Under the pieces are notes generated by a model. It worked only from the letters and a program-made list of their open reading frames with translations. It had not been told where the DNA came from and did not search any database. This document shows, piece by piece, positions 2,770 through 40,100 of a stretch of 64,000 nucleotides of DNA. Each line of letters begins with the position of its first letter. The stretch's first letter is position 1. A program made the position numbers and the translations under genes. Location: assembly GCA_000004985.1 (NCBI GenBank), contig GG738858.1; one strand, 5' to 3'. The DNA comes from Naegleria gruberi. Its lineage: Eukaryota.

Positions 2770-4563
2770 TTATCTATGCATCAGATTGAGTGTTTCTTCT
2801 ACAATTAGATTTGGACTGGTAAGAGCCATATCAAAATCTGCATCAATTATCTTCCATGCCATTTTGGTGGAATTGTAGTAGGTAGCTAAATCTTGGTGCA
2901 TTGATAAAAAGGCGTTTGCACGTTCTTGTTGATAAATAAGAAAATCATTGCATAGAGCTGTTCCAAAAGAAAGGTAATTGTCCTCGCAAGATCCATAAAG
3001 TAATTTCTTTGATGTGAGTATACTGACTGGAATAATTGTTGAATTTGAAGAATGGAATTGCTGTCTCTTTGCTCTAATATTTATAATATTGCCTGTCGTA
3101 TTTTTCATGTCATCAAGCTCACCCCAAACAGCATTATTGAACTTGTTGATATTTGTTGTATGTTGGTTGTATTTCAGTAAAAGTTGAACAGCTGTTGAAT
3201 TTGGGAAAGATGAAAAATACGTCTTCCAGCCATTCAAGTAATATCGTTCATGGATTGTTCCTAAGGTGGAAGGGAGTTTTTGATAGAAATAATTTGAGAA
3301 ATATCTAGTAAATCCAATAGGTGTTACGAATCTAATGGTATTGGCCATATAGGCTTTCTCTTCTAACATATTGCTTATTTGAGTATCAGTTAAATTATAC
3401 ACACTACCAAGATGATATGTGTCTTGCTTTTCATGAGATGGATGCAACAAGATAACACCCCTCAAGAGTTTTCTGTGATATTCCATGACTGTTCTGGCTG
3501 TGAATGAGGCACTTGAATGTGAAATCAAAATGAATGGTGTTTTGAAAGATGCCTCTTTCACAAGTGCAATCATTTCATTCATTGTTGTATTGCTCAAATC
3601 TCTTGGAAATGGTCCCGAATCGCTGAATCCATATCCTGCTCTCTCAATCACACAAGCTCTCATTCCCTTCTTTGCCAACAGAGTGATTAAACTCTTCATA
3701 TAAGCATATGGTGATGCAACTCCAATATCTGAATCGAGAAGCACTGCATCTTCACTTTCAGAATCTCCTTCACAATACATGTGCATATTCAGTGTTTGAG
3801 CACTCGAGGGTTTAATGCTGTACATGGTTCCAGGGACTTTATATTCATCCTGTGTTATCGAAACTGATTGGACTGTAAACATGATGAATAAGGCACAAAC
3901 TAAAGCCATAAATGTATAGACTAGAAGCTTGATGACTGTTGTAACTCGACAACAAATTCTGGTTCTGAAAAAGCTTTCTTCTCCATACCATTTTTCTTCC
4001 TTCAAATCGAATATTATTGTATTTGATTTTCTAAATTTCTTGAATTGATGATATGCAATTACAAGATATGAAATTGGAGAGATGACAAAAAACAGGCAAA
4101 GCCAACCAGAAAGTCTCTCTCTATTCTCACTATAAAGTCCATAACAAACCCAATTAATCAAACTAGAGATGAAAATAAGTACTCCCCAAAATATTCTCGC
4201 AAAGAGAGCCATGCTATATCCGTCAATATTAATTTGACGAGTTAAATTATCCTTAATAAGTCCTTTCTTTTCAATAAAAGATACAATCCTCTTATACCAT
4301 CTCAATAAAAATAAAGGTCCGAATAGATCAAAAATGAATGTTAATGAAAAAACCATTTGAAATGCACTTGTCCACACAACAGTAGTAGGAGAACCTGCAG
4401 TAAAATATCCTATTTGATCAGAATTACTATTATCCATTGAAATTCCAAACACTACTATGGAGGATAATGCACAAAATAATATTGTTAGAATTGCAACTTT
4501 GTAAATTGCTCCAATTATTCCCTTCTTGGTCTTTTTAGTCTTCTTCTTTGTTGGCTTTTCCAA
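2770..4563 (-). CDS. multi-pass membrane protein with a C-terminal alpha/beta-hydrolase-fold domain (paralog A)
   Basis: 597-aa ORF. The N-terminal ~250 aa contain about 6 hydrophobic helices. The C-terminal half has CVIERAGYGFSD (a D-x-R-G-x-G-x-S-like AB-hydrolase motif) and ILISHSSAS (a nucleophile-elbow-like motif). The first codon is TTG with no in-frame ATG upstream; a possible acceptor lies at ttaatag near 4585, so a small upstream exon or a non-ATG start is possible. Confidence 0.55.
   Translation of the reverse strand: MEKPTKKKTKKTKKGIIGAIYKVAILTILFCALSSIVVFGISMDNSNSDQIGYFTAGSPTTVVWTSAFQMVFSLTFIFDLFGPLFLLRWYKRIVSFIEKKGLIKDNLTRQINIDGYSMALFARIFWGVLIFISSLINWVCYGLYSENRERLSGWLCLFFVISPISYLVIAYHQFKKFRKSNTIIFDLKEEKWYGEESFFRTRICCRVTTVIKLLVYTFMALVCALFIMFTVQSVSITQDEYKVPGTMYSIKPSSAQTLNMHMYCEGDSESEDAVLLDSDIGVASPYAYMKSLITLLAKKGMRACVIERAGYGFSDSGPFPRDLSNTTMNEMIALVKEASFKTPFILISHSSASFTARTVMEYHRKLLRGVILLHPSHEKQDTYHLGSVYNLTDTQISNMLEEKAYMANTIRFVTPIGFTRYFSNYFYQKLPSTLGTIHERYYLNGWKTYFSSFPNSTAVQLLLKYNQHTTNINKFNNAVWGELDDMKNTTGNIINIRAKRQQFHSSNSTIIPVSILTSKKLLYGSCEDNYLSFGTALCNDFLIYQQERANAFLSMHQDLATYYNSTKMAWKIIDADFDMALTSPNLIVEETLNLMHR
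3422..3777. repeat. ~350 bp tract identical to 6327..6682, with a single mismatch (gene-conversion tract within paralog A)
   Basis: Direct comparison of the two plus-strand stretches: cttgcttttcatgagatggatgcaacaagataacacccctcaagag ... ttcactttcagaatctcc is identical in both genes, with one mismatch at 3769/6674. The flanking sequence is only about 40% identical at the protein level. The identical antisense ORFs 3485..3703 and 6390..6608 are by-products of this tract. Confidence 0.85.
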
Positions 4564-4620
4564 ATCAAAGAAAGTATATCTATTAATATGAAAATGTTAT
4601 AAAATCATGCAAAATAAAAC

Positions 4621-5340
4621 CTACACAACTGGTTCTTCATCTGCTTGTTCCGTAGTATTTTGAAAAACAGAGAAGAGGGTTTTCTTTTTTGGTTTTTTTA
4701 CAATGGTACGAGTTGAACATCCATCCAAGTCAATGCTGTTAGTACTGTGAAAGCCATGATCAAAGGGGAATTTATGATGTTTTTGCATTTCATTTCTTCC
4801 TTCTCCATGTTCGACAATATCCGATAGTGGTGAATGTGTTTCACCTCCTATTTTAACTCTCAACAACTCTTTTGCTGTAATTATTGCATTATCCTCTAAA
4901 GGATGAGAATTATTTGGCACACGTACGACAGTGTCGCTCAATCCAAGAGAAATTGGTGAAAGGCCTTCAGGTAAGGATGTATTGGATGTATTCTTTTGAT
5001 TATTATTTAAATTGCATGTAATGTGCGTATCATGACACCCCTTCTCAGATGTTGGAGTAAAAGAAACACCATCACTCCTATTGCAAGACTCACTATCACC
5101 ACTTGGTGTAGAATTACTACTATTGCTATTACTATTACTACTGTGTGTATTGATAATAATTTGTGGAGGAAGTGTGGTTTCCATCATGATCATAGAGTCA
5201 TGATGTTGAGTGATATTGGTTATTCCTTCATCATGATGATGATGCTGAGGTAACGGAGAGGAGGAATGCCTTCTAGTCTGTTGTTGTCCTTCTGATGATG
5301 AAGATGAAGAAGAGGAAGGTGTTGAAATTGAATTGAACAT
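4621..5340 (-). CDS. hypothetical S/H/N-rich low-complexity protein
   Basis: ORF 4621..5346 has a first in-frame ATG at 5340 (MFNSISTPSSSSSSSS...). It has poly-Ser, His and Asn runs and no recognisable domain; coding status is uncertain. Confidence 0.3.
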   Translation of the reverse strand: MFNSISTPSSSSSSSSEGQQQTRRHSSSPLPQHHHHDEGITNITQHHDSMIMMETTLPPQIIINTHSSNSNSNSSNSTPSGDSESCNRSDGVSFTPTSEKGCHDTHITCNLNNNQKNTSNTSLPEGLSPISLGLSDTVVRVPNNSHPLEDNAIITAKELLRVKIGGETHSPLSDIVEHGEGRNEMQKHHKFPFDHGFHSTNSIDLDGCSTRTIVKKPKKKTLFSVFQNTTEQADEEPVV

Positions 5341-5701
5341 TTTCAAAGATGTAGTAGTAGACTTGTTGAATACAACAACACACTAATAATTCAGCTATAA
5401 TTTTATGCTTTAATGATGGAAATGCTATTCTTGATGATGCTTGCCAAACAATAATGGCTCATATCATCTATGATATTGGTGAATGGCTGGTTTTTTTGAG
5501 TGGATTTATTTGGTGGTGAGAGGAAAACGAACTGTGATCAGCCACAAACTGATGCGGTTAAGGCATTGAAGAATTGTGAACGAAAAATTTCATTTCAAAG
5601 CCTTCTTGCAAGCTGTGTTGTGCTGAGAACGAAAAATCAACAACAAAAAATATAAGAAGAGGAAACGCCCCTTCAATATCTATGACTGCCCTTTGAGTTT
5701 T

Positions 5702-7570
5702 TCAAAAATCTTGAAGAAAAGGAAGTATTAGTTCGGGATGATGTAAAGCAATATCATAATCCGAGGGGATGTGTTTCCAGGAGACGGAGTAGAGCTTGGG
5801 TTGATTTTTGTAAAAATTGAAGAGATCTTGATGGAGGAGTTGGATGATGAAAGATCTTTGGAATTGTTTTTGGAGGAAATCTTGGCAAATTGATGAACCT
5901 TCTGGAAAGAAATTTTGGCTACAATTTCCATTGAGAAGATAGCTTGATGTGAGGATGATTAGAGGGAGTGGTTTTGTTGAATTGGACATTGTTTGTGGAT
6001 TTTCTCTATTATGGATGATCTGCTTATTATTGAATGGGATGGATTTCAACTCACTCCAAACAGTGTTCGTAAATTTGTTGCTATTGAGAACACTATCGTA
6101 AATTTTCAATAATGTTGAATTAGTGAAAGATGGATAGAAGTACTTTTTCACACCATTCATATAATATCTATCATACCAATTATCCTTTTCATTTTCCTCC
6201 AATAATCCAAAAACTCGAAATATTCCAATAGGAACCAGCATTCTAATGGTATTCACATGGCTTACTTCAGTATTGTAGTGTTCCTCTACTGTTTCATTCT
6301 TGACAAATGTTCTCAGTAATGATTCTTCTTGCTTTTCATGAGATGGATGCAACAAGATAACACCCCTCAAGAGTTTTCTGTGATATTCCATGACTGTTCT
6401 GGCTGTGAATGAGGCACTTGAATGTGAAATCAAAATGAATGGTGTTTTGAAAGATGCCTCTTTCACAAGTGCAATCATTTCATTCATTGTTGTATTGCTC
6501 AAATCTCTTGGAAATGGTCCCGAATCGCTGAATCCATATCCTGCTCTCTCAATCACACAAGCTCTCATTCCCTTCTTTGCCAACAGAGTGATTAAACTCT
6601 TCATATAAGCATATGGTGATGCAACTCCAATATCTGAATCGAGAAGCACTGCATCTTCACTTTCAGAATCTCCCTCACAATATAGATGAAGGTTAATTGT
6701 CTGTGTGTCTTTGGAATATAAGGGCACCTGAACTGTTTGACCTGGCATGCTTTGAATTCCTGCCAAGATAGATACAGCCTGAATAACACAACCTATTAGT
6801 ACCACAATTAGTAGAGTTGTAAATATTAACACTGAAATATGGGCTGCTTTCATGAAGTATTTCATTATGGTTGATCTTTTAGAATACAAAAACAGATAGA
6901 TTTCATGGCAATTTTGTGTCTTTTTGTGCTTATGCTTTCCAAATTTTTCCTCATAGTATTCCTTGACATACCTTCCTTTAACAAACTGGTAATATTTTGT
7001 TAACAAATCAAAGATTACATTACTTACTTGATATACAATCACTAGAATATATGCAATCATTGGAATTAATCCAGAGAATGCAAACCAACCAGTCAATCTA
7101 TCTCTACTCTCCTTTACAGTATATGAAATCCAAATAATGGAAAGCAATAGCATTGTTACAATGGTAATTAATAATTTGATAATTAACATCAGAATAGAAG
7201 TATCCCATGATAGATACATGTAATTTGTATAATTAGTAACAAAAATCTTTTTCCTTTTAATACTAAATCCCATCATACAGCCCATAATTGGTATGAAATA
7301 TGAATCAATAATTAATAATCCAATGTAAAATAGCATTACAATAGAAATCCAAAATATTGTAACTGGTGATCCACTTGTATAAAATCCACTATTCGACACT
7401 ACATTAGCAGCACTAACAGACATTGTAACTATATATGAAATCAAAAAGAATATCAGTGTTATAGTGCTAATTTTGTACAGTGAATGAAAAATCTTCTCCA
7501 CATGTTTGAGTTCACTCGGCTTGGAAACAATTTTTGGACTTGTACTAATTGGAGAACCTTGCATTTCCAT
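5702..7570 (-). CDS. multi-pass membrane protein with a C-terminal alpha/beta-hydrolase-fold domain (paralog B)
   Basis: 622-aa ORF starting at ATG 7570 (MEMQGSPIS...). It has an N-terminal multi-TM region and the same hydrolase block as paralog A, including 136 identical residues. An 80-codon in-frame ORF (7571..7810) lies directly upstream, separated by a single TAA. Confidence 0.6.
   Translation of the reverse strand: MEMQGSPISTSPKIVSKPSELKHVEKIFHSLYKISTITLIFFLISYIVTMSVSAANVVSNSGFYTSGSPVTIFWISIVMLFYIGLLIIDSYFIPIMGCMMGFSIKRKKIFVTNYTNYMYLSWDTSILMLIIKLLITIVTMLLLSIIWISYTVKESRDRLTGWFAFSGLIPMIAYILVIVYQVSNVIFDLLTKYYQFVKGRYVKEYYEEKFGKHKHKKTQNCHEIYLFLYSKRSTIMKYFMKAAHISVLIFTTLLIVVLIGCVIQAVSILAGIQSMPGQTVQVPLYSKDTQTINLHLYCEGDSESEDAVLLDSDIGVASPYAYMKSLITLLAKKGMRACVIERAGYGFSDSGPFPRDLSNTTMNEMIALVKEASFKTPFILISHSSASFTARTVMEYHRKLLRGVILLHPSHEKQEESLLRTFVKNETVEEHYNTEVSHVNTIRMLVPIGIFRVFGLLEENEKDNWYDRYYMNGVKKYFYPSFTNSTLLKIYDSVLNSNKFTNTVWSELKSIPFNNKQIIHNRENPQTMSNSTKPLPLIILTSSYLLNGNCSQNFFPEGSSICQDFLQKQFQRSFIIQLLHQDLFNFYKNQPKLYSVSWKHIPSDYDIALHHPELILPFLQDF
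6327..6682. repeat. gene-conversion tract, copy 2 (identical to 3422..3777)
   Basis: see 3422..3777. Confidence 0.85.
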
Positions 7571-8003: not shown

Positions 8004-9629
8004 ATGAAATTAATTCTCATAGCTTTATTTGCAGTACTTGCATGTTTAGTTGCATTGACAAGTTGTGAACATACTATCAAAACCAAGCAATTATCCAAAG
8101 ATTCTCTTGTTTTGGAATCAACCAACAGCAATGAAGATACAATTGAATTCATGTTCAATAATGCCGAGCATTTTCCATTGATTGGAGTTAAGCTTGTTCG
8201 TCAAGCTCCAACCAGCACCAATCAATCATCCAGTCAACAAGCTAGTCAGAGCGGATCTCAAAGTCAACAATCTGGCAGTCAATCTTCTTCACAAACAACA
8301 CAACCTCAACCTCAATCATCCACCAGTCAAATGCAGCAAGAACAAGCAAATGGTACTGTTTCAGCCTCCCAACAGCAACAGCAACAATCCAATGCTTCTT
8401 CACAAGCAGCAAGTCAACAATCTTCTCAATCATCTAATCAAACTCAAACTGTCGAGAAGCAAGACAATCCTCAAGCACAAAGCACTTCACAAGCAGGAAG
8501 TCAAGGTACAGGCAGTTCATCCCAAGCTACTACTCCTCAATCTGGTAATCAAAATAGTACCGCAAGTTCCACTTCCACTTCACAAAGCTCTCAACAAGGA
8601 TCCAGTAGTTCTTCCCAATCCACTGCTCAAACTAATCCTGTCTCTCAAGATAACTCTTCAATTTCTGGCGATACTCACATGGACTTGACACCAAACGTTA
8701 CTCAATCTGTCGGTCAAGGCAATGTTTCATCTACACCATCTGTAACTAACGTCAATACTACCTTGATTAATGAAACTCTCCAAAATATTGGTATCAGTAA
8801 TTCTACTGCATCAAAGGATATTAATATTACAGATATAATCGGAAGAATAATTAGTGGAGAGAACATTACTGAGATTATCAATAGTACCTTAAGAAATTTA
8901 ACTCAATGGCTTAACTCTACACTGAGCAATGATACGGATGACAGCTCTCAAACATCTCAACAATCCAAGAGAGGGTCACTTCGTAGAAGACTTCTTTCCC
9001 TCCTTGAAGAAAATGAAGAAAATGAAAACTATGCTCAATATCTCAAATTTAACAAGCTCAAGCTTATGTCAAGTGAAGGTGAAACTGTCAAGGAAATTCC
9101 ACTTTCAGATGCAAATATTCACTGGAATTATGGCCACTCCGTTGTAGTCAATAATGAGCAAGCATTTAAGGTTCCTCACGTTGATGTTGAAATTCCTCTC
9201 TCATCTTCCAGTAATAGACCATCACTCAAGATTAGAACCATGATGACTGAGGCACCATCTCATATTGAAAGAAATGGTAGGGATATTCAGTTGAATCCAA
9301 GATCTATGGATATTCAAATTACTTTGAACAACCTCCATGATTTATTATCTGAAAAAGAGAAGAAGCTATCAGGTGCTAAATGGACCATAGAAACTGAATT
9401 GACATCCACAACAAATTCATTGCACTTGATGCAAACCAAGAACCTGAACGGTGTTCAAAGAGTTGTTGTAATGGGTAACAATTTCACTCCAAAAGGCCAA
9501 TTTACTTTTAATTCTTCCCCTAATATGAAAGTTATCCAAGATTCTGACAATGACGACCTTATCTCTATTCAAATTCAAGACTCATCCAACTCAATTCAAC
9601 TCAACCCAATCAAATTTGGTGTGCAATAA
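8004..9629 (+). CDS. secreted S/Q/T-rich mucin-like protein with a structured C-terminal domain
   Basis: ATG at 8004; signal peptide MKLILIALFAVLACLVALTSC. About 250 aa of SQ/ST low complexity are followed by about 230 aa of non-repetitive sequence. Many N-x-S/T sites. Confidence 0.5.
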   Translation: MKLILIALFAVLACLVALTSCEHTIKTKQLSKDSLVLESTNSNEDTIEFMFNNAEHFPLIGVKLVRQAPTSTNQSSSQQASQSGSQSQQSGSQSSSQTTQPQPQSSTSQMQQEQANGTVSASQQQQQQSNASSQAASQQSSQSSNQTQTVEKQDNPQAQSTSQAGSQGTGSSSQATTPQSGNQNSTASSTSTSQSSQQGSSSSSQSTAQTNPVSQDNSSISGDTHMDLTPNVTQSVGQGNVSSTPSVTNVNTTLINETLQNIGISNSTASKDINITDIIGRIISGENITEIINSTLRNLTQWLNSTLSNDTDDSSQTSQQSKRGSLRRRLLSLLEENEENENYAQYLKFNKLKLMSSEGETVKEIPLSDANIHWNYGHSVVVNNEQAFKVPHVDVEIPLSSSSNRPSLKIRTMMTEAPSHIERNGRDIQLNPRSMDIQITLNNLHDLLSEKEKKLSGAKWTIETELTSTTNSLHLMQTKNLNGVQRVVVMGNNFTPKGQFTFNSSPNMKVIQDSDNDDLISIQIQDSSNSIQLNPIKFGVQ

Positions 9630-15559: not shown

Positions 15560-15680
15560 GGCTACGGCCATATCACGATGAATGCACCTCATCCCGTCCG
15601 ATTTGAGAAGTTAAGCATCGTCGAGCCACATCAGTACTGAGGTTGGAGACAACTTGGGAACCTGTGGTGCTGTAGTCTTT
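15560..15680 (+). rRNA. 5S ribosomal RNA gene, copy 1
   Basis: ggctacggccatatcacgatgaa...ccgtccgatttgagaagttaagcatcgtcgagccacatcagtactgaggttggagacaacttgggaacctgtggtgctgtagtc fits the eukaryotic 5S consensus (GCCATAC-like 5' end, CCGATCTCGTCTGATCTCGGAAG-like core). It is followed by a T5 Pol III terminator. Confidence 0.85.
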
Positions 15681-15790: not shown

Positions 15791-16927
15791 TTAGAAACAC
15801 TTTCTATGAACAAAACCTGGACCAGCCTCCTCATATTCCTCTTTCGATATCCACATCTGCTGAAAGGTTGCAAGACTCGCGAGGATACTACCTCCAATCC
15901 AAACTGAATACTTTCTTTCAGGTGGGGCGACAACCTTTATCTTCATTGAGGCTGGTGCCAAAGCAGTCAATTCCTTGGTCATTCTTTCAGCAATACCTTC
16001 GAACATGGTATTACCACCTGACAAGACAACATTTCCATACAATTCCTTTCTAATGTCAATGTCACATTTACCAATTGAGTTGAATGCCATTTCATGAACA
16101 CCAGCAGCCTCCATTTTTTCAACCAAATTAGGTTGGAATAAAACTTCTGGACATCTGAATCGTTCGTTACCAATTGTTATCACATTACCATCTGGTAATT
16201 CGTATAACTTTTCCACGGAGGATGATTCAGCAGCAACTTTCATTTCAGCTTCGAAATCTAAAGCAATATAACAGAGCTTTTCCTTAATACCTCTGACAAC
16301 TTCTCTTTCAGCAGTAGTATTGAATGAGTAACCTCTTTCCATCAAAATATTCATCAAACAATCAGTCAAGTCACGACCAGCCAAATCCAATCTCAAAATG
16401 GCATGTGGCAAGGCATAACCTTCATAAATTGGAACAGTGTGTGAAACACCATCACCAGAATCCAAAACTATACCAGTACTTCTACCAGAAGCATACAATG
16501 ACAAGACAGCTTGAATGGAAACATACATGGCCGGAACTGAGAAGGTTTCAAACATGATTTGACTCATCTTTTCTCTATTTGGCTTTGGATTAAAAGGAGC
16601 TTCAGTCAACAAGACTGGATGTTCCTCAGGAGCAACACATAATTCATTGTAGAAGGTGTGATGCCAGATCTTTTCCATATCATCCCAATTAGTAACAATA
16701 CCGTGCTCAATTGGATACCTTAAAGTCAAGACACCACACTTGTATTGAGCTTCATCACCAACATAGGCATCCTTACCAAACATTCCAATCATGATTGACT
16801 TTTGCTTTGGTCTAGCAACAATTGAGGGAAAGACAGCTCTTGGAGCATCATCACCAGCAAAACCAGCTTTACACATACCAGAACCGTTGTCAACAACGAG
16901 AGTTTGAACGTCTTCATAGAAAGACAT
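15791..16927 (-). CDS. actin (conventional, slightly divergent N-terminus)
   Basis: Translation from ATG 16927 is [40 protein letters not shown]...[40 protein letters not shown]. This is near-identical to canonical actin over about 375 aa. The longer listed ORF (start 16990) adds 21 non-actin residues. Confidence 0.9.
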
Positions 16928-17219
16928 TTGATTTGTTTTTTTTAAAGTTTGTTCATCTGGACAACATTTGACAATTTGAAGTTGACTCAAGTCTTCATAT
17001 CAGAGCTATCAGTCATATCCGTCAAGTAAATGAAAAAAGAACTTTTGAATTTTTGCTGGTTCCTAAATTTAGAAAATATTGAAATGATATGGAGTTGGAT
17101 TGTTCTTTGTTCGATAGTAATTCAAAATAATTCAAAGATTGTTGTGAACATCCCTTGTTGAAGATCAATAGGTAAGAATGCTTACCATTCCCCAAATGAT
17201 TTCATCTATATTTCAGTTT

Positions 17220-18405: not shown

Positions 18406-18526
18406 GGCTACGGCCATATCACGATGAAAGCACCTCATCCCGTCCGATTTGAGAAGTTAAGCATCGTCGAGCCACATCAGTACTGAGGTTGGAGACAACT
18501 TGGGAACCTGTGGTGCTGTAGTCTTT
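18406..18526 (+). rRNA. 5S ribosomal RNA gene, copy 2
   Basis: Differs from copy 1 at one position (gatgaaAgcacc versus gatgaaTgcacc) across 119 nt. It shares about 60 bp of upstream flank with copy 1 (ttttgctttc..agattttcaatattctttatatt.attgt.ttaaggtaatgaatg). T5 terminator follows. Confidence 0.85.
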
Positions 18527-18704
18527 TTAATTAAGTTTTAAGACACATGAATCTTTAAAGTTGTTCATGTAGTCTTTTTGAGGAGAATTTTACTCCCTGT
18601 TCAAAGTATTAACATTTGATATTTGGGCATTTAATTAAAGTAGTACCACAACATCTTTCTCGGCCAATTGGCTTTGATCGAGTGAAGTTTCTGTTCTTTT
18701 CAGT

Positions 18705-19094
18705 TTAATAGCTGAAAGCAGCCCAAGGGTTGCCTCCTCTCAATCTCAATACTAAATGCACAGTTGAGTCCTTTTGAAGATTGTAATCATTAATGGTTCT
18801 GCCATCTTCCAATTGTTTTCCTGCATAAATCAATCGTTGTTGATCTGAAGGAATACCTTCTTTATCAAATATCTTTTGTTTCATATTCTCAACAGTATCA
18901 CTCGATTCCATTTCAATTGTAATTGTCTTTCCAGTTAAGGTTTTTACTTGTTTTCCAGCAAAGATGAGTCTTTGTTGATCTGGTGAAATTCCTTCCTTTT
19001 CTTGAACTTTTCTTTTCACATTTTCAATTGAATCATTAGATTCAACTTCCAAAGTGATTGTTCTACCAATGAGTGTCTTGACGAATAATTGCAT
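18705..19094 (-). pseudogene. ubiquitin-derived ORF with an internal partial duplication or deletion (likely a polyubiquitin remnant)
   Basis: [18 protein letters not shown]...RLIFAGKQV, then the reading restarts at [16 protein letters not shown]...[35 protein letters not shown], followed by NPWAAFSY. That is Ub residues 1-48 fused to Ub residues 6-76 plus an 8-aa tail. The two parts are about 65% identical at the nucleotide level. The ATG overlaps the stop of the upstream actin fragment (TAATG). Confidence 0.55.
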
Positions 19095-20477
19095 TATGTT
19101 TGTTGTTTTTTTTTCTTATTGTTTTTCTTTGAATTCAAAGCATTTCTTTGCATTTTATTCTTGTAAACCTCCATTCCAATAAGATTTGGTTGAAATAATA
19201 TCTCAGTAGTTTTGAATCTTTCATTCCCAAGTGAAATTACATTTCCATCTGGCAATTCTAGACCGTGGGAGGTGAGAAGGATTGACAAATATTTTAAAAA
19301 AAAATTAAGAAGTCACTCAAAAAACAATTTGTTAAAGTCGAGCCGAAGGTTTATTGGACCAAGAGTGAGACAGTGTGTTCAAAGTATCAATTACCACTTG
19401 TTCTTCTAGAAACAAGTACTTCTGGGTTCTTGTACATGAACCTTCGCTTTAATGTACCAACAATTTCAAGTAAATGGGCAGGCACTTATCTAGATGATGT
19501 TTTGGTGAGGTGAATGTAGTAATGGCTGGTGAGGAAGGAAGCAAAGGGAGAACTCTCCTCATGGTGGCTTCTCAAGGTAGCATGCTGAAGGTGGGAATAC
19601 CAACCAATATACCTATTTAGCAGGGTGATGATGAAATCATGATGAGTAATTGTTGTTTGTTGTTTTTTTTTGTTGAATATTTAACGGTCAGAACAGACAA
19701 CTTTCAGCGGTTATTGGTTGGCGCGAAATTACCGTGATGTAACATTTTTTAGCTCACCTCCCTCGGTCTAGGCAATTCATATAAACTTTCTTTCGCTGTT
19801 TCTGCCAAAAAATTACTGGCAACATAACCAGTTTTTTCCTTCATATCCCTGACTAGTTCAGTTTCACCCATCGTGCTGAAATTATATCCTCGTTCCATTA
19901 ACATTTTCTTCAAATAATCTGTCAGGTCTTTGCCTCCTAATTCCAATCTTTTGGTGGCATGTGACAGGGCATATCCTTCATAAACAGGTACTGAATTAGT
20001 GACGCCATCACCTGATTCCAATACTACACCTGTCATTCTACCATTTGCAAATATTGACATGGCACATTGATTTGCCAAACACAAACCTCTCACCTTAAAA
20101 CTTTCAAACATGATTTGTGTCATTTTCACTTTCACATCCTTTGAATTTAGTGGCATTTCCATCAGTAATACTTCATGCTCCTCAGGAGCAACTCTTAACT
20201 CATTGTAAAATGTATGATGCCATATCTTTTCCATATGATACCAATCTGAAATTAATCCACGATCAATTGGATATTTGTAAACATTAATACCCCTCCTACA
20301 CAATGCATAATCTCCAACGTAAGTTTCGATAGAGCCCATTGAAAGGAGGAAGGGTGCTACTTTTCGATGTGAAGTTACTGTGGGAAAGACTGCTCGTGGA
20401 GCATAATCACCAGAAAAACCAGCTTTCATTTGAGAGGAACCATTATCAATGATGAGTGGTGGATTTTCATCAGTCAT
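19094..20477 (-). pseudogene. actin-like gene fragment (residues ~1-275 only), interrupted by a 512 bp TIR element and ending in a K-rich tail
   Basis: ORF 19749..20477 is MTDENPPLIIDNGSSQMKAGFSGDYAPRAVFP...ESLYELP-RPREVS-stop. ORF 19094..19288 is ...[31 protein letters not shown]...KKKKQQT-stop. Removing 19259..19778 restores a continuous [16 protein letters not shown] actin frame. The fragment is about 55-60% identical to actin and lacks the C-terminal ~100 residues. Confidence 0.6.
19259..19770. mobile_element. non-autonomous DNA transposon (MITE-like) with 18 bp terminal inverted repeats and an 8 bp target-site duplication
   Basis: Left end: ggcaattc|tagaccgtgggaggtgag. Right end: ctcacctccctcggtcta|ggcaattc. 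The TIRs are reverse complements with 1 mismatch. A perfect 8-bp direct repeat ggcaattc lies at 19251-19258 and 19771-19778. The interior (about 475 bp) has no ORF. Excision exactly restores the actin reading frame. Confidence 0.6.
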
Positions 20478-20575: not shown

Positions 20576-20646
20576 CTCGAACGCCGGGAATTGAACCCGG
20601 GTCGCCAGAGTGACAGTCTGGAATGCTACCACTATACCACGCCCGA
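20576..20646 (-). tRNA. tRNA-Asp (anticodon GTC)
   Basis: Minus strand reads TCGGGCG-TG-GTAT-AGTGGTAG-CATT-CCAGA-CTGTCAC-TCTGG-CGAC-CCGGG-TTCAATT-CCCGG-CGTTCGA-G, a cloverleaf. The anticodon loop CTGTCAC gives GUC, and the T-loop is TTCAATT. The overall pattern is like eukaryotic tRNA-Asp. A T-run follows the 3' end. Confidence 0.7.
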
Positions 20647-20851
20647 TTACATACCTTACGAAATCTCACCTTAATTCACCTTAATAACAAATCTCACTCA
20701 ATTCTGGCTAATTTGTATTTATTCAAAGGTATTTATGTTTTTAAAAGCTCCATGAACTTGGCTGGAAATTCAATTAAATGTGGAAACTTCTCTATTTGTT
20801 TCAGATGTGCATTTTCGAAAATGCATCTTTTTTTTCAAATATGAATCACAA

Positions 20852-22060
20852 ATGGACAAAGTTGATGGAAACACAACCAAAAAAATGGATCCACAACTAA
20901 CGTTCAAGGCATACAGCAAGATTGAAAATCATCATCAGGAGAGTTTCGTTTCAAAGTTATTGGAAAAGGAAACTGAAGATTCGGATAAGAAATTGGAATG
21001 GGTTTGCTTGGAGAAAGTGCATGGTAGCAATTTCAGCTTTATTGTTGTTCCTAAAGAAGGATCACAAGATAAAGTTGAAGTATTGAAAGCAAATCGTACC
21101 AATGTTCTTACCATATTAAGTAATTTCTTTGTGGAAGCTCAAAAAGAAGTTTACGAAAGATATTACAAGAGTTGTGTTAAATTATTCGAAATTATTTCTC
21201 AAAATGCAGAAAAATTCAAACGAAAGACTATGGAAACTGAAAGTGAAATTACAAAAATTCACATATTTGGTGAATTATTTGGTGGATACTTTCCAAAATT
21301 GAAAAATGATCAAGATTCGAATGGTATTCGTAAAGCACACATTCAAAAAGGTGTTTACTATTGTCCACATTATGATTTTTACGTATTTGATGTGGCAGTG
21401 ACATTTGGCGACCAAGATACTTGGTTACTTTTCGATGAGGCAGATCCAATTCTTGAAGAAGCAGGATTTAGAGTTAGAGCTAAACCACTTTTTAGAGGTT
21501 CATTGAAGGAATGTTTGGATTTTGATGTGGAAATTAACACGATAATTCCACAAACTTTTTATTCTGACATTTTGACAGAAAATGATATTTTATTTAAGGA
21601 AAAGGAAAATATTTGTGAAGGAGTGGTGATTAAACCTGCTAATGGTACTGTATTTGTCGGATCGAGGGCAATTATTAAGAAGAAGAATTCAAAATTTACT
21701 GAAGTCAATCCTGCCAAAGATAAATCTAAACGAATGAAGAAACAGGAAAAATCTGTGGATCAAGACGAACAAGAAATGATTTCTAATGTGTGGAATGAAA
21801 TTGAGCGATATTTGAATAATAATCGTCTTGATAATGTCGTTTCCAAAGTTGGAAATATTACTAGAGAAAATCTTTCACTTGTTTTGAAGAATTTTGTGAA
21901 CGATGCCATTGAGGATTATGATAAAGATCAACAAGAATTGGGAGAAGAAGGAGCTACCCTATCATCCCTTCCAGTCAACATTCAAAAATCAATCAAGAAG
22001 AAATTGGGATCCACCTGTCAAGCAATTCTTCTAAAATACATGAACGAAAACAAACAATAA
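20852..22060 (+). CDS. Rnl2-family (T4 Rnl2 / kinetoplastid REL-like) RNA ligase with a C-terminal extension
   Basis: First ATG at 20852 (MDKVDGNTTKK...). WVCLEKVHGSNFSF matches nucleotidyltransferase motif I (K-x-H/D-G) of the Rnl2 family (KIHGTN). HIFGELFGGYFP matches the Rnl2 motif III/IV region. YVFDVAV and a K-rich tail follow. The listed ORF start 20780 is GTG. Confidence 0.55.
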   Translation: MDKVDGNTTKKMDPQLTFKAYSKIENHHQESFVSKLLEKETEDSDKKLEWVCLEKVHGSNFSFIVVPKEGSQDKVEVLKANRTNVLTILSNFFVEAQKEVYERYYKSCVKLFEIISQNAEKFKRKTMETESEITKIHIFGELFGGYFPKLKNDQDSNGIRKAHIQKGVYYCPHYDFYVFDVAVTFGDQDTWLLFDEADPILEEAGFRVRAKPLFRGSLKECLDFDVEINTIIPQTFYSDILTENDILFKEKENICEGVVIKPANGTVFVGSRAIIKKKNSKFTEVNPAKDKSKRMKKQEKSVDQDEQEMISNVWNEIERYLNNNRLDNVVSKVGNITRENLSLVLKNFVNDAIEDYDKDQQELGEEGATLSSLPVNIQKSIKKKLGSTCQAILLKYMNENKQ

Positions 22061-22308
22061 ACCCAGATTCTAACACTCTTACCTTAATAAATTCCCATCT
22101 TTAAATCAGTTAATGTACTTCACTTGCATGAAGATGATCTTTTTGAGAGAGAGATTTAAAAAGTTCATCAAAACTCAATCTCTGAAATTTTATTTCATCG
22201 TAATGAACCAGAAAAAAATATTATTTTTTTAATCATCAAAAAAAAACCTTAATAACAAACTCTGTCGGGAACAGATAGCAATTATCATTATTATTGTTAT
22301 CAATCAAT

Positions 22309-23649
22309 ATGAAGGAAATAATAACAATTCATGTCGGAGGGGCCGGATGTCAAATAGGCGATCAGTTGTGGGAGTTATATTGTAAGGAACACGGTATACA
22401 ACGTGCTGCAGATCATCATACCAATAATACAACCTCCATGATGGAATCATCAGCTGCCTTTTCATCAGCAGAGAGTTTGTTCTATGAAACGAGTCATACA
22501 GAAAAGCAACAATATGTTCCATTGGCTATCTTTTTCGATAACGACTCATCAAGAGTGCACGAATCGAGGAAGAGATTTGGTAACTTAATGTCCTCAGACA
22601 ATATGATTGGAGGTAAGGAAGATGCTGCCAATAATTTTGTGAGAGGATGCTACACGATTGGAAAGGAGAATATGGATACAGTCTTGGAGAGGATTAGAAT
22701 ATTGAGTGAGAAGTGTGATAGTTTGCAGGGAATTAATGTTGTGAACTCGTTGGGAGGAGGAACAGGCTCTGGATCAGGAACATTATTGCTTGATAGAATG
22801 AGTATAGACTTTGCAAAGGTTCCAATTCATTTGAATACTGTTGCACCATCTCCAAAATTGTATGATACAGTTGTGGAACCATATAATTTTTGTTGGGCTA
22901 TGGAACCAATGTGTGAAAAGGGATGCACAGCAACTTTTTATGATAATGAGGCCTTGTACAATGTTTGTGGAAATCATTTGGGAATTAATGATCCGAAATT
23001 AGCTGATATTAATCAAATTATTGCACACCACATTTCCACAAGCTTTTCCAGTTGTAGAATTGGATCTAATTGTGCAATGCCTGTTTCATTTGGAGATGTA
23101 AATCAGACACTTGTTCCAATTCCAAACTTTGAATTACTTACCCCTTCATTTGTACCATTTGGTTCTGCTCAGAACGAGTTGAGTATGGCAGAGAGGGGCA
23201 AACTTGCATTTAGTCCTTCCAACACTTTGATTTCTTACAACATCTTGGAAGGAAAAATGCTGAGCTCACTGTTAAGTTATAGAGGAAATGTAACTATGGG
23301 AGATAACTTTGAATGTTTGAGTGCTGTCAAAAAGATGGAGGGTATTTCTATGGGCCCTTCTTGGATTCCAAATACTTTCAGTTGCCACATCTCCAAAGCT
23401 CCAACAACTCTTTTGGATGATTCAGTTCTTGGGGTTGTGCCAAGTGAAAAGATGCTTGCAGTAACAACCAACACAACTGCCATCACCAAAAAATTGAATC
23501 AAATTATGGTAAACTTTGATAAAATGTATGAAAAGAGAGCATTTGTTCATTGGTATGTTGGAGAGGGCATAGAAGATGAATATTTTAGATATGGAAGATC
23601 TATACTCGAAGAAAAGGTTGCCACCTATGGAGAGTTGATTTCACAATAA
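22309..23649 (+). CDS. highly divergent alpha-tubulin-like protein
   Basis: First ATG at 22309. [30 protein letters not shown] corresponds to the alpha-tubulin N-terminus (MREVISIHVGQAGIQ..WELYCLEHGI). It carries the tubulin signature GGGTGSG and a C-terminus [27 protein letters not shown] (compare alpha [24 protein letters not shown]). The middle region is very diverged, with insertions. Confidence 0.7.
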   Translation: [446 protein letters not shown]

Positions 23650-28395: not shown

Positions 28396-29991
28396 ATGTG
28401 TTGTTTTGGTTGTGTATTTTCCAATTTTTTCAGAGAAGTAATGGGAGTAAGAGAATTTACGATCCGTCTGTTTAAGAGCGAAGATCGTTCGAAAACATAC
28501 AAACCACTGATTGATATCCTTCCGTGGTGGGCTGTTTTAGTCCTTTTTATTATTGCAACAGTATTATTTGGTATTGCTATCATTGTGGGTGTCTTTGCAG
28601 GCCCAGTCGTATTGGATTCACACTATGTGGAAATGGATACAAGAAAGAACACAACAACAAGTTCACGTGGATCTATTGATTTTGTGCCAAGAACATCATC
28701 ACATTTGAGATATGCTCAATATACTTTGGATGGAGATCATGATGATCTCAAGCCACTTTTCTATGGTCAAGAACAAGTCTTGGCTACAGCACCAACAACA
28801 TTTAGTGCCATTAATCAAGAGATTAATTTTCTCTGTTATTTGAAATCTAATACTTCAACATTTTCTGTGGAATCTGAAAAGGCCTTTGGTTTCCAAAAGT
28901 CTAACCTCCAGTTCTTCTTGCAACTTTTTGGTAAGGATGAAGCTGATGGTGATTGGGAGCTTATTGTGAATGGTACCTATTCCAGACCATTGGTTTGTAC
29001 TTCCACTAGTGAACTCTGTGATCCAATTACACTATTCTATGAATCACATATTAGACATCCATACTATCGTATTGGTGTGAGCTTCCTCAACTCTCGTGAA
29101 TTATATGATAATACTCTTATTGATCCACATTTCGTCAAGATGGAATTTGAAAGCTACAATGCTGCTTATTCAAATTGGGAATTGGGCTGGAGATATAGTA
29201 TAATCTTTATCACTGCTCCACTCTGTATTGCTTTCATTATTGCCAATATTATTAGAAGTCACTTTGTAAATTGGGCTACTGAACAAAAGTGGATTGGATT
29301 GTTGCTCATTTTCCTTGTACTTTACAATAATCCTATTTTTGCATTGATTTTCACAGCAGGTAACTGGGCTTTCTCCTTTATTAATATTGTATTTATTATT
29401 AGTTTCGTTTGCTTTTTAATGTTTGTGGTGCTGGTTTTCACTGATTCTCTTGTCATTCCACAAAAAGATAGATCATTCCTGTGGTTCTACATCCCAAAGA
29501 TTGTATTGGTTGGCATTCTCTTTGTATTTGTCATTACTACCTTTACCTACGTCAGACTTCAAGAACAAGAAGATCCAGGTTACAATTTGGGAATTGTTCA
29601 AGGACTTTCCTCATATCAAACATTGGGCATTATTGTTGTATTGATTATGCTTGTCTACATCTTTGTTCTTATTTATTATTTGATGAGAGTTATTGAAAAG
29701 CACAGAATGAACTTGTTACCAAAGAGAAATGCTTGGCGTAGTAAGGTTATTTGGTTCTTGACCATTACAATGGTTATTGGTACTATTGTGGAAATCTTCC
29801 TCTACGTTTTCAGTAAGGATTGGAATAGCTCTGCTCAATTCTTGTCCTACTTTATGTTCTACAGTTTGTACGTTTGGCTCATTACCATTCTCTATTGGCC
29901 AAGCTTTACTGCCGTTCAACAAGAAGAATTCGACGAAGAAAATAACACCCAAGCCAAAGAAGATGATTACTTTGATGAAATGGATGAATAA
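28396..29991 (+). CDS. multi-pass membrane protein with Wntless/TMEM181-like topology (N-terminal TM, ~200-aa luminal domain, 7 C-terminal TMs)
   Basis: The topology is read from hydrophobic segments. The assignment to the Wntless/TMEM181 family rests on architecture only, with weak sequence support. An alternative start is ATG 28441 (MGVREF...), preceded by ttttttcag. Confidence 0.3.
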   Translation: MCCFGCVFSNFFREVMGVREFTIRLFKSEDRSKTYKPLIDILPWWAVLVLFIIATVLFGIAIIVGVFAGPVVLDSHYVEMDTRKNTTTSSRGSIDFVPRTSSHLRYAQYTLDGDHDDLKPLFYGQEQVLATAPTTFSAINQEINFLCYLKSNTSTFSVESEKAFGFQKSNLQFFLQLFGKDEADGDWELIVNGTYSRPLVCTSTSELCDPITLFYESHIRHPYYRIGVSFLNSRELYDNTLIDPHFVKMEFESYNAAYSNWELGWRYSIIFITAPLCIAFIIANIIRSHFVNWATEQKWIGLLLIFLVLYNNPIFALIFTAGNWAFSFINIVFIISFVCFLMFVVLVFTDSLVIPQKDRSFLWFYIPKIVLVGILFVFVITTFTYVRLQEQEDPGYNLGIVQGLSSYQTLGIIVVLIMLVYIFVLIYYLMRVIEKHRMNLLPKRNAWRSKVIWFLTITMVIGTIVEIFLYVFSKDWNSSAQFLSYFMFYSLYVWLITILYWPSFTAVQQEEFDEENNTQAKEDDYFDEMDE

Positions 29992-33377: not shown

Positions 33378-33448
33378 AGGGAGATAGTTCAGTGGTAGAA
33401 CATGGGATTGTGGTTCCTAAGATCAGGGTTCGATTCCCTGTCTTCCTA
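33378..33448 (+). tRNA. tRNA-His (anticodon GTG)
   Basis: AGGGAGA-TA-GTTC-AGTGGTA-GAAC-A-TGGGA-TTGTGGT-TCCTA-AGAT-CAGGG-TTCGATT-CCCTG-TCTTCCT-A. The acceptor pairs 7/7 counting one G-T wobble. The anticodon loop TTGTGGT gives GUG. A T-run terminator follows. Confidence 0.65.
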
Positions 33449-33531: not shown

Positions 33532-33603
33532 AGCAAATTGGCGCAGCGGAAGCGCGATGGGCTCATAACCCATAGGTCCTAGGATCGAAACCTAGATTTG
33601 CTA
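33532..33603 (+). tRNA. initiator tRNA-Met (anticodon CAT)
   Basis: AGCAAATTGGCGCAGCGGAAGCGCGATGGGCTCATAACCCATAGGTCCTAGGATCGAAACCTAGATTTGCTA is near-identical in pattern to eukaryotic tRNAi-Met (AGCAGAGTGGCGCAGCGGAAGCGTGCTGGGCCCATAACCCAGAGGTCGATGGATCGAAACC...). It includes the initiator-specific A54/A60 T-loop ATCGAAA. A T6 terminator follows. Confidence 0.8.
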
Positions 33604-37179: not shown

Positions 37180-40100
37180 ATGACTCGATTATTACTCACG
37201 ACAGTTGTCATTTGTATTTCAATTTTGTTAGCCCTGACAGGATATATCAGTGCCGCGGTTACATGCAATGGTGTAGATCAGACAGATCCTTCAACCTGCA
37301 GTGGTCATGGTCTATGTAAAAGCAACAATAATTGCGCATGTCTTGACATGTCACCTGCCAATACATTAATTTCACAAACTGGAGGATACAATGGCATTCC
37401 AACAACATTAAATACCTCACGAACGCTAACTTCATCAAATGGTCAATATCAAGCATCATTAGATCCATCAACAGGTCGTTTACAAGTCCAAGATGTCACC
37501 AACTCGACCATCGTTTATCAAAGTGCAACTTTATTATCAGCAGCTTTATTTGCACCTTTTGAATTAAGATTATTTGTACCTTCATCTACTACCTGTCAAA
37601 TATCAATTTATGGAAATAATGTATTAGGTTTGACATTGACAGGTACAGTAAGTGCAATTTTGCCATGCAGATTGGTCATGAGAAATAATGGAGAATTAGT
37701 AATGTACAGTTCCGCTGGGTTTGTTTGGTGGACAACAAATCCATCACTGTCAACTGGCACTGAAGATTTAATTTATCAAGGTGTCAATTGCGCTTCACCA
37801 ACTTGTTATGGAATTTTGGCAGAATCTCCAAATGTTTGTTCTGGAAATGGAACTTGCACCTTTACTAATTCATGTTCTTGTAAAAGTGGACATTTCGGAG
37901 ATTTATGTGATGCTTTTAAATGTTTTGGAAATTTGGCAAATGACACGTTGAATGTTTGTTCAGGAAATGGAAATTGCATTTCTCCAAATGTTTGTTCGTG
38001 TAATTCTGGATTTTATGGACCTAATTGTGATTTAATCAAGTGTTTTGATGTGCTCAGTAATGAAACATCGAGTGTTTGTTCTGGACATGGAATTTGTTCG
38101 AGTACTGACAATTGCACTTGTGCAAACGGTTATTTGGGGAGTAAATGTAATCAGTTCGAGTGCTTTGGAATTTCAAATTCAGTAACTTCAGGACTCCAAT
38201 TGCCATGCTCTGGAAATGGAACATGTACTGGAATAGATCAGTGTGTATGTCAATCTGGATTTATTGGAAATGAATGTGAAACATTTAAATGTTCTAATTT
38301 TCTCAAGAATGACACTTTGAATGTTTGCTCTGGTAATGGATCATGTATTGCTCCTAATCAGTGTTCATGTCAATCTGGATTTTTCGGTTCGACATGTGAA
38401 GCTTTCAAATGTGGAAATGCATTATTCAATTCGAGTTCAGTATGTTCTGGAAATGGATTTTGTAATGCTCCAGATCAGTGCATTTGTAAGAATGGTTATT
38501 CTGGATCATTGTGTGATAAATTCACTTGCTTTGGAATTGCCAATGATTTAACAAGTGGTGGTCCATTAGCAGTTTGTTCTGGAAATGGAACATGTTCTGC
38601 GTTGGACAAGTGCATTTGTAATTCTGGATTTTTGGGTGACAGCTGTGACACTTTCAAATGTTTTAACAAGTTGAAGAATGATAGTTTGGTTTGTTCTGGT
38701 AAGGGAAGTTGCATTCTTCCAGAAACTTGTTCATGTTCGTTGGGATATGAAGGATTGAATTGTGACGGTTTCAAATGTTTTAACAAATTGAAAAATGATA
38801 GTTCAGTATGTTCAGGAAATGGATTATGTACTGATATTAATCAATGCTCGTGTAAGAATAATTGGTTAGGTCTTGATTGTTCTGTCACTTCTTGCTTTAA
38901 TTTACTGTCAAATGACACAACTGTTTGTTCTTCGAAAGGAAGTTGCGTTGGATTTAATCAATGCTCATGTCAATCTGGATATTTTGGTAGTCTATGTGAT
39001 GTTAAGAAATGCTTCTCCTACCTGTCAAATGAAACTTCACTTGTCTGTAATGGACAAGGAACATGTACTGATCTTGACACTTGTTCCTGTAACTCTGGAT
39101 TCCTTTCGAATGACTGTAGTGTCAATACGAATCCATTTTCCATTTCTTTGAACGTTTCTTCACTTTCCATTTATCAAGCTACTTCTTGGAATAGTGTGAA
39201 AATTTCCCTGTCAGAAGTTTTAAATGTCAATTTAATTAATTTCAATTGGTATTGCTTGGATTGTGTCACCAGGACAAGTTCTAATCTCCAGAAGGGACTT
39301 GTGAGTTCTTCACAAATTTTACAATTTAGAACTTCAGATTTAGTGGCAGGAACTTTTACATTTATTGCAAATGCAACATTTTCGAATATTTCACCATATC
39401 CAAAACGGGTTTCGAATAGTGTTTCATTTAAATTGACTGTATTGGATATTAATGTTCCTACTTTGGATGTTTTTGGACTTCCTTCAGTAATTATTTCAAA
39501 AATTGATCAACCAATTTCTAGTATAGTTTCTAGCATGACTTTAAATCAAACTTTGATTCAAAGTTTTATTGGAAAGTGTTCGAATGTTAGCTGTTCAACG
39601 CAGGTCACTTATTCTTGGACTATTTCATCTGCCGATAATACATTCAAGGCATCTTCTGATGGAATTACTAATATTCTCAACTTGGTTGATTCTACTATTA
39701 CAATTTCACCTCCAATTCAATTGACCACAAATTTATTGTCACTACTCAATAGTACTTTGACATTTTCTTTGAGTATTGTCAATCCATTACTGAAATCATT
39801 AACTTCATTGATCCAAATCCCAATTGTCTCTCCAGCTTTACCACCAACAGTTAATATTCCTGGATGGACAAGTGACGTTTACGGAGCTAACACGACCATT
39901 TCAAATGTCATGAGAGTTAGCCCAAGTCAAGGTATTTCACTCACTAATTTATTCACTATAACTATTGAATCATGGAGTGCTGATTCTAGACTCCTTCCTC
40001 TCAAGTATGCTGTTGGATTTTATGATAAAAAGACGAGTAAGCCAATTAGAGTAACTGAATATTCGAATCAAACCGAAATTTCAATTTATTTACCTTATAT

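Follow-up and report, generated by a model that had tools for sequence, protein, structure and literature searches.

The 64,000-nucleotide (nt) stretch of Naegleria gruberi DNA analyzed here (contig GG738858.1 of assembly GCA_000004985.1), referred to in the following as the window, contains two tandem genes, A and B, which are diverged on either side of a 347-nt tract in which they are identical base for base. We consider it likely, with a probability of roughly 0.85, that this is a real interlocus (ectopic) gene-conversion tract between the two N. gruberi genes. Since the copies show no differences in 347 nt, the conversion event appears to have been recent, a term that applies to the last homogenizing event.

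Genes A and B are old tandem paralogs

The genes were located as follows:

Gene A, open reading frame (ORF): 2770-4563, minus strand, 597 amino acids (aa).
Gene B: 5702-7570, minus strand, 622 aa, ATG start; five predicted transmembrane (TM) helices (aa 34-263, roughly 6782-7471), then an alpha/beta-hydrolase-fold domain.

A and B are old tandem paralogs, 2.9 kilobases (kb) apart in the same orientation, and their products are collinear over the full length (BLASTP E = 3e-140). Each product has five predicted TM helices and a domain that matches the Pfam family Abhydrolase_1 (PF00561; 31.3 bits for A and 32.9 bits for B, with a gathering cut-off of 25.8), as expected from the initial annotation, which had described the two genes as sharing one architecture. 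In a codon-threaded alignment, the flanking regions had an amino-acid identity of 30% N-terminal to the tract and 42% C-terminal to it; the earlier figure of about 40% outside the block was thus roughly right. At the nucleotide level, the flanks were 48% (N-terminal side) and 53% (C-terminal side) identical. Third positions were identical at 40-45%, which is saturated for a genome with a guanine-plus-cytosine (GC) content of 34%, the value for the window.

An AlphaFold2 model of the hydrolase domain (A residues 222-597) had a predicted local distance difference test (pLDDT) score of 90 and a predicted template-modeling score (pTM) of 0.92. The model has an eight-stranded alpha/beta core with the canonical strand order, the strands being at domain residues 25-32, 35-44, 52-56, 81-85, 123-128, 146-152, 292-297 and 348-352, and a large helical cap, with helices at domain residues 159-277, inserted after beta6. 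Foldseek matched it to haloalkane dehalogenases, esterases and epoxide hydrolases with a probability of 1.0 and template-modeling scores of 0.5-0.58.

The identical tract has sharp edges in both genes

The two copies of the tract and the codons adjoining it are:

Identical tract, gene A copy: 3422-3768, minus strand; A residues 266-380 (GDSESED...HPSHEKQ) and bases 1-2 of codon 381.
Identical tract, gene B copy: 6327-6673, minus strand; B residues 300-414.
Y-C-E codons of the invariant YCEG motif, adjoining the tract: 3769-3777 in A and 6674-6682 in B, minus strand; one synonymous mismatch (GAA/GAG), then 8 matches.

Direct comparison showed that 3422-3768 equals 6327-6673 over 347 nt at an offset of 2905. 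The offset is constant, without insertions or deletions (indels), and the reading phase of the tract is 0 in both genes. At one edge, a single mismatch (3769/6674) is followed by 8 matches (3770-3777), and identity is at random level from 3778 on; at the other edge, below 3422, it drops to random level immediately. BLASTN of the whole window against itself reported the pair as 356 nt at 99.7% identity, with no further extension. Both the run of matches and the peptide landmarks CEGDSESED, YGFSDSGPF, ISHSSAS and LLHPSHEKQ were therefore as initially annotated. Both edges fall inside both ORFs, and the copy number is unchanged. On the structural model, the tract spans the end of beta2, beta3, alphaA, beta4, alphaB, beta5, the nucleophile elbow, alphaC and beta6, and it ends at the core/cap junction.

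The identity is not a matter of chance, which is excluded as its cause: the probability of an exact run of 347 nt is ~1e-92 at the flank identity of 0.53, ~1e-40 at an identity of 0.75 and ~1e-13 even at 0.9. Selection on the protein is likewise excluded, and copying of DNA is required, because all 110 tract codons capable of synonymous change are identical (110/110), whereas in the flanks only 76/152 conserved residues are encoded by the same codon in A and B. In total, 115/115 tract codons are the same in A and B in the codon-threaded alignment.

The segment is the best-conserved part of the protein in the family, at 55-65% amino-acid identity. At the DNA level, however, gene A is only 63% and 60% identical in this segment to its closest homologues, P0001 and P0002, respectively, and the longest exact runs are 10-11 nt. 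Near-identity is therefore not a trait of this segment in the family. The nine nucleotides beyond the mismatch-bearing edge are a different matter. The sequence of the YCE codons, TATTGTGA, also occurs in P0001, for all that this homologue is 63% identical to A in the tract, and the matches at 3769-3777 therefore reflect older conservation, that is, microhomology, and need not belong to the converted tract.

Non-reciprocal copying and its possible mechanism

The initial annotation had proposed a recent non-reciprocal exchange, and the data support this: the identical island is two-sided, in frame and free of indels, and the flanks are saturated at synonymous sites. The presence of two identical copies on one chromosome, with in-frame boundaries on both sides and an unchanged copy number, requires non-reciprocal copying. 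A reciprocal swap is ruled out because it would not make the copies identical, and an unequal crossover because it would result in one junction and an altered copy number.

Naegleria encodes RAD51, DMC1, MSH2/6 and related repair proteins (PMC9928731). In the mechanism that we propose, a break or gap in one paralog would have been repaired with the other as the template. The repair would have copied 347 nt, at most 356, replacing the region from the end of beta2 through beta3-beta6 together with the nucleophile elbow. The exchange would then have been resolved at local homology that already existed as a result of invariant motifs, TAT TGT GAR GG (YCEG) upstream and CAT GAA AAx CAA GA (HExQ) downstream. 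Both ends of the tract do adjoin patches encoding these motifs, TATTGTGA(R)GG for YCEG and CATGAAAAnCAAGA for HExQ, and P0001 shares both; to judge from these patches, the tract ends would fit resolution at microhomology. Since the flanks have no homology at the DNA level, there would have been either an inefficient first event, by homeologous recombination or template switching, or repeated homogenization of the core.

The direction of copying was analyzed with identity matrices and bootstrapped neighbor-joining trees of the N-flank, the tract and the C-flank, in which support on 114 columns was weak. The position of gene B was unstable. Base composition and the GC content at third codon positions gave no information on the direction. 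There is a slight lean towards B, or some further copy, as the donor, suggested by the grouping of the tract with the homologue P0003 and not with A's nearest relative, P0001.

Several points weigh against conversion between A and B as we have described it. Canonical homologous recombination is inefficient at ~60-65% identity, which is the presumed state before the exchange, and without homology in the flanks the first event requires microhomology or an earlier stage at which the sequences were more alike. As for the donor, the tract grouped with P0003 in 73-76% of bootstraps (neighbor-joining, 114 columns), the flanks of A grouped weakly with P0001 (42-60% of bootstraps), and a further unannotated N. 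gruberi paralog could be the true donor. The identity is known from a single assembly. Exact-protein look-ups with B and two neighboring ORFs found no second copy of the locus, and a metagenome scan yielded bacterial relatives alone, with about 30% identity, and no second locus copy.

Alternative explanations for the identity

The strongest alternative is that A and B have exchanged sequence repeatedly since the duplication, so that the core never diverged and the edges mark the end of homology and not the limits of one event. We regard such a long-maintained conversion island as plausible, though on balance unlikely. It would do away with the need to start recombination between ~60%-identical sequences, and it would agree with the edges falling at conserved motifs and at the limits of a structural module (beta3 to beta6, ending at the core/cap junction); the perfect identity, without scattered differences, also speaks for it. 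However, identity does not decay in a gradient at either edge, and the GC content at third codon positions is not raised in the tract (0.32, as compared with 0.28-0.35 in the flanks), leaving no sign of the GC-biased conversion that might be expected in the long term. Furthermore, the related heterolobosean loci are single-copy, so persistence of the island is not demonstrable; for the same reason, they provide no comparative timing of the conversion.

A more far-reaching version of this idea, which we consider improbable, is that the island perpetuates itself and, in two membrane proteins that otherwise diverge freely, keeps identical the beta3-beta6 module, nucleophile elbow included, of a histidine-less, probably non-catalytic ecto-domain (described below), having been started by template switching anchored in microhomology between genes without usable DNA homology (~50% identity). 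If true, it would mean that Naegleria has an unusually permissive homeologous repair pathway, and perhaps that there is selection for an identical core, for example as a surface for a shared ligand or a heteromeric partner.

It is also very improbable, in our view, that both genes received the segment from a third paralog located elsewhere in the genome, or that one of them did and then converted the other. The grouping of the tract with P0003 instead of P0001 points in this direction, and N. gruberi has at least one further member of the family; as the annotation misses A and B, it may miss others. On the other hand, the bootstrap support is weak on so few columns, and two independent events with the same end-points would be less parsimonious than one. 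The only other known N. gruberi paralog, P0014 (NAEGRDRAFT_75551), is encoded on another scaffold. As it is only 57% identical in the tract, it is not the donor. An exact-protein look-up of P0014 found no independent copy.

That the identity was created in the assembly or consensus, by repeat collapse, a chimeric clone or mis-polishing of copies that really differ, is so unlikely that we give it little weight, even though it would be allowed by the reliance on a single assembly. In a gene with ~50% identity, such an artefact would have needed to exchange the homologous stretch precisely, keeping the frame and introducing no indels at either end, and mis-mapping of reads between ~60%-identical sequences is not expected. 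Sanger reads exceed 347 nt and so would bridge the block and reach unique flanking sequence at each end. A 347-nt repeat is unlikely to have been collapsed because the published N. gruberi NEG-M genome, with 35% GC, was produced with Sanger technology (PMC9928731), and the window presumably originates from that assembly.

Finally, selection at the nucleotide level on a functional DNA or RNA element within the block (an embedded non-coding RNA, an antisense transcript or a regulatory element) was rejected and retains practically no weight: no Rfam match was found within the tract at E <= 1, its RNA fold was no stabler than that of shuffled sequences (z = +1.38, with 93/100 shuffles folding at least as well), the segment is not conserved at the nucleotide level in P0001 and P0002 (60-63% identity), and selection does not yield 347/347 identity next to flanks at random level.

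Gene structure and annotation

The initial annotation gave the extent of gene A as 2770-4563. This ORF is present, but the gene is larger, as it also includes an exon further upstream (5340-4625) and an intron of 45 nt; the TTG at 4563 is not a genuine start but a product of the way ORFs are listed. The structure of gene A is as follows:

Exon 1: 4625-5340, minus strand; low-complexity Ser/His/Asn-rich N-terminal extension, ATG at 5340-5338.
Predicted 45-nt intron: 4580-4624, minus strand; GTAGGT...TTAATAG, the sole frame-preserving GT..AG combination; splicing restores the family motif FFDLEKP.
Exon 2: 2770-4579, minus strand; five predicted TM helices (aa 23-231, roughly 3871-4497), then the alpha/beta-hydrolase-fold domain.

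In N. lovaniensis, the homologue occupies 2784 nt and its product has 909 aa, which again implies a single short intron. Counterparts of exon 1 are found as long N-termini in the N. fowleri and N. lovaniensis homologues and as upstream ORFs in two related loci (L001 and L003). Gene B has no N-terminal extension, and its ATG is 433 nt from a divergently oriented gene. It is not decaying, as it keeps 62/62 of the family-invariant residues, including those in the flanks.

The divergent neighbor of gene B is a 541-aa ORF at 8004-9629 on the plus strand, whose N-terminus resembles a signal peptide and which contains a very long low-complexity region rich in Ser, Gln and Thr. This ORF had no Pfam match.

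A search with B returned the N. lovaniensis and N. fowleri homologues and no N. gruberi protein matching A or B, in a database that does hold N. gruberi proteins. Genes A (2770-5340) and B thus appear to be unannotated in the public N. gruberi protein set, and since neither was found there, the locus needs annotation. Anyone working with short reads should also be aware that unique mapping is impossible in 3422-3777 and 6327-6682.

The hydrolase fold lacks the canonical catalytic histidine

Two positions in the hydrolase domain depart from the catalytic pattern of canonical relatives:

Nucleophile-elbow serine, inside the tract: Ser350 in A (3514-3516) and Ser384 in B (6419-6421), minus strand; S-H-S-S-A-S replaces G-H-S-x-G-G.
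Asp at the canonical catalytic His position, in the loop after beta8, outside the tract: Asp578 in A (2830-2832) and Asp606 in B (5753-5755), minus strand.

Ser350 and Ser384 are located in an Sm-x-Nu-x-Sm elbow between beta5 and alphaC and align with the GHSxG of canonical homologues and with the serine of the esterase 4uhh. The column of Asp578 and Asp606 reads D-[FY]-D, opposite S-[SG]-H in canonical relatives, and in a profile alignment to the solved structure of 4uhh it falls on the G-H of that enzyme. The initial annotation had presumed that the block encodes the catalytic core and had suggested that a downstream histidine might complete a catalytic triad. The block does hold the nucleophile elbow; the position of the triad histidine, however, lies outside it and is occupied by Asp in both genes and, indeed, in the whole clade, so the expectation of a canonical triad is not borne out.

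The clade to which A and B belong (A, B, P0001-P0005, P0013 and P0014) comprises Naegleria and Willaertia proteins and sequences from environmental contigs, and it has an invariant Asp at the catalytic-His position throughout. Its elbow reads [SA]H[SA]xAS where canonical relatives have GHSxGG, and in P0003 the elbow serine is lost as well, with alanine in its place. Because the catalytic histidine is replaced by Asp clade-wide, the clade would represent either a pseudoenzyme lineage or one with a non-canonical catalytic arrangement. A candidate for such an arrangement is His556 (in MHQDL), a residue that is invariant only in the histidine-less clade. Directly after beta6, within the tract, Glu378 in A and Glu412 in B (in HPSHE) are invariant in the family and common in bacterial homologues; this residue is a candidate for the acidic triad member, which in some dehalogenases follows beta6 and not beta7.

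The hydrolase domain also has four invariant cysteines and several N-x-S/T sequons, and from these features it probably faces outside the cytosol. The results point to a heterolobosean clade in which TM-anchored proteins with an alpha/beta-hydrolase fold have had their catalytic histidine replaced.

The family in other species

An exhaustive profile search found only 12 proteins at E <= 1e-30. Those with a named source all came from Naegleria or Willaertia, and the rest were from environmental or sequencing-run contigs. The same search returned thousands of bacterial hydrolases that matched the core only. One family member each, without a tandem partner, was found in two environmental, A-like loci (L001 and L002), in the loci of P0002 (L003) and P0003 (L035), and in N. 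lovaniensis (L004). So far, then, the tandem arrangement of A and B is specific to N. gruberi.

The third N. gruberi paralog, P0014, is annotated as a protein of 371 aa that begins exactly at MYCEG, without the TM region of its closest relatives, P0002 and the Willaertia protein P0013. The N-terminal part is probably missing from the gene model.

Other features of the window

The remaining genes that could be assigned in the window include the following:

15560-15678 and 18406-18524, plus strand: two 5S ribosomal RNA (rRNA) genes, 2.8 kb apart (Rfam, 105-106 bits).
18651-18773, plus strand: U2 small nuclear RNA gene, directly downstream of the second 5S gene.
20576-20646 (minus strand), 33378-33448 (plus strand) and 33532-33603 (plus strand): three transfer RNA genes.
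15791-16990 and 19749-20477, minus strand: two actin genes, 67.7% identical to each other in DNA.
20780-22060, plus strand: T4 Rnl2-type RNA ligase with an Rnl2 C-terminal domain.
22294-23649, plus strand: divergent tubulin-family protein.
28396-29991, plus strand: Wntless-like TM protein, 100% identical to NAEGRDRAFT_47789.

A second candidate conversion island, at 15496-15683/18342-18529 (188 nt at 96.8% identity) and close to a pair of diverged paralogs, was rejected, as it consists of the two 5S rRNA genes and their upstream regions, of which ~64 nt are also conserved. The small-RNA genes are scattered among the protein-coding genes of the window. The second actin ORF (19749-20477) covers only positions 2-266 of the actin profile, and this gene either has an intron that breaks the ORF or is truncated. 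The coding sequences of the actin pair contained no conversion tract, in contrast to those of A and B. At 37180-42939 on the plus strand there is an ORF of 1919 aa with internal tandem repeats of ~120 and 370 nt, 64-71% identical, at about 37.8-38.9 kb.

Comparison with known systems

The domain encoded by A and B resembles the alpha/beta-hydrolase superfamily (PF00561; structural neighbors 4uhc, 4mj3 and 4mea), which includes haloalkane dehalogenases, epoxide hydrolases such as Cif, and esterases, in having a serine at the beta5/alphaC elbow and a helical cap. It differs from canonical members in several respects: the elbow is S-H-S-S-A-S and not G-H-S-x-G-G, the catalytic His is Asp, the domain follows five TM helices in the same polypeptide, the cap is very large (~120 aa), and there are four invariant cysteines together with N-glycosylation sequons. 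A canonical sister subfamily, represented by N. fowleri FDP41_004857 (P0163) and Willaertia magna ABK040_011385 (P0018), coexists with the histidine-less clade in N. fowleri and Willaertia and has the same TM-plus-hydrolase architecture as A and B. With this subfamily and with bacterial hydrolases, A and B share R-x-C-V-x-x-R-A-G-Y-G-x-S, PxPR and the HE-x-Q after beta6; these relatives keep GHSFGG and the catalytic histidine of S-[SG]-H, whereas the A/B clade does not. Other canonical relatives with GHSxGG are several environmental sequences and bacterial hydrolases of ~340 aa, which one source labels "pimeloyl-ACP methyl ester carboxylesterase".

Classic cases of interlocus gene conversion between tandem duplicates are those of the human gamma-globin and opsin genes, RHD/RHCE and CYP21A2/CYP21A1P, and conversion tracts of this kind are detected by GENECONV-type tests. 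We found no paper on gene conversion between paralogs in Naegleria. The tract in A and B resembles the classic cases in its length of a few hundred base pairs, in the identity of synonymous sites and in the constant copy number, and both of its boundaries are located within collinear paralogs in the same orientation, a few kb apart. It differs in its surroundings: the flanks in the classic cases are usually 85-98% identical, whereas those of A and B, at 48-53%, have no detectable homology at the DNA level. This makes the tract an unusually clean case of conversion between paralogs without flanking DNA homology, and one that could be used to study the homology requirement of the Naegleria repair machinery. 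In other respects, the event is a fresh instance of an ordinary textbook process, and it leaves the current understanding of that process in place.

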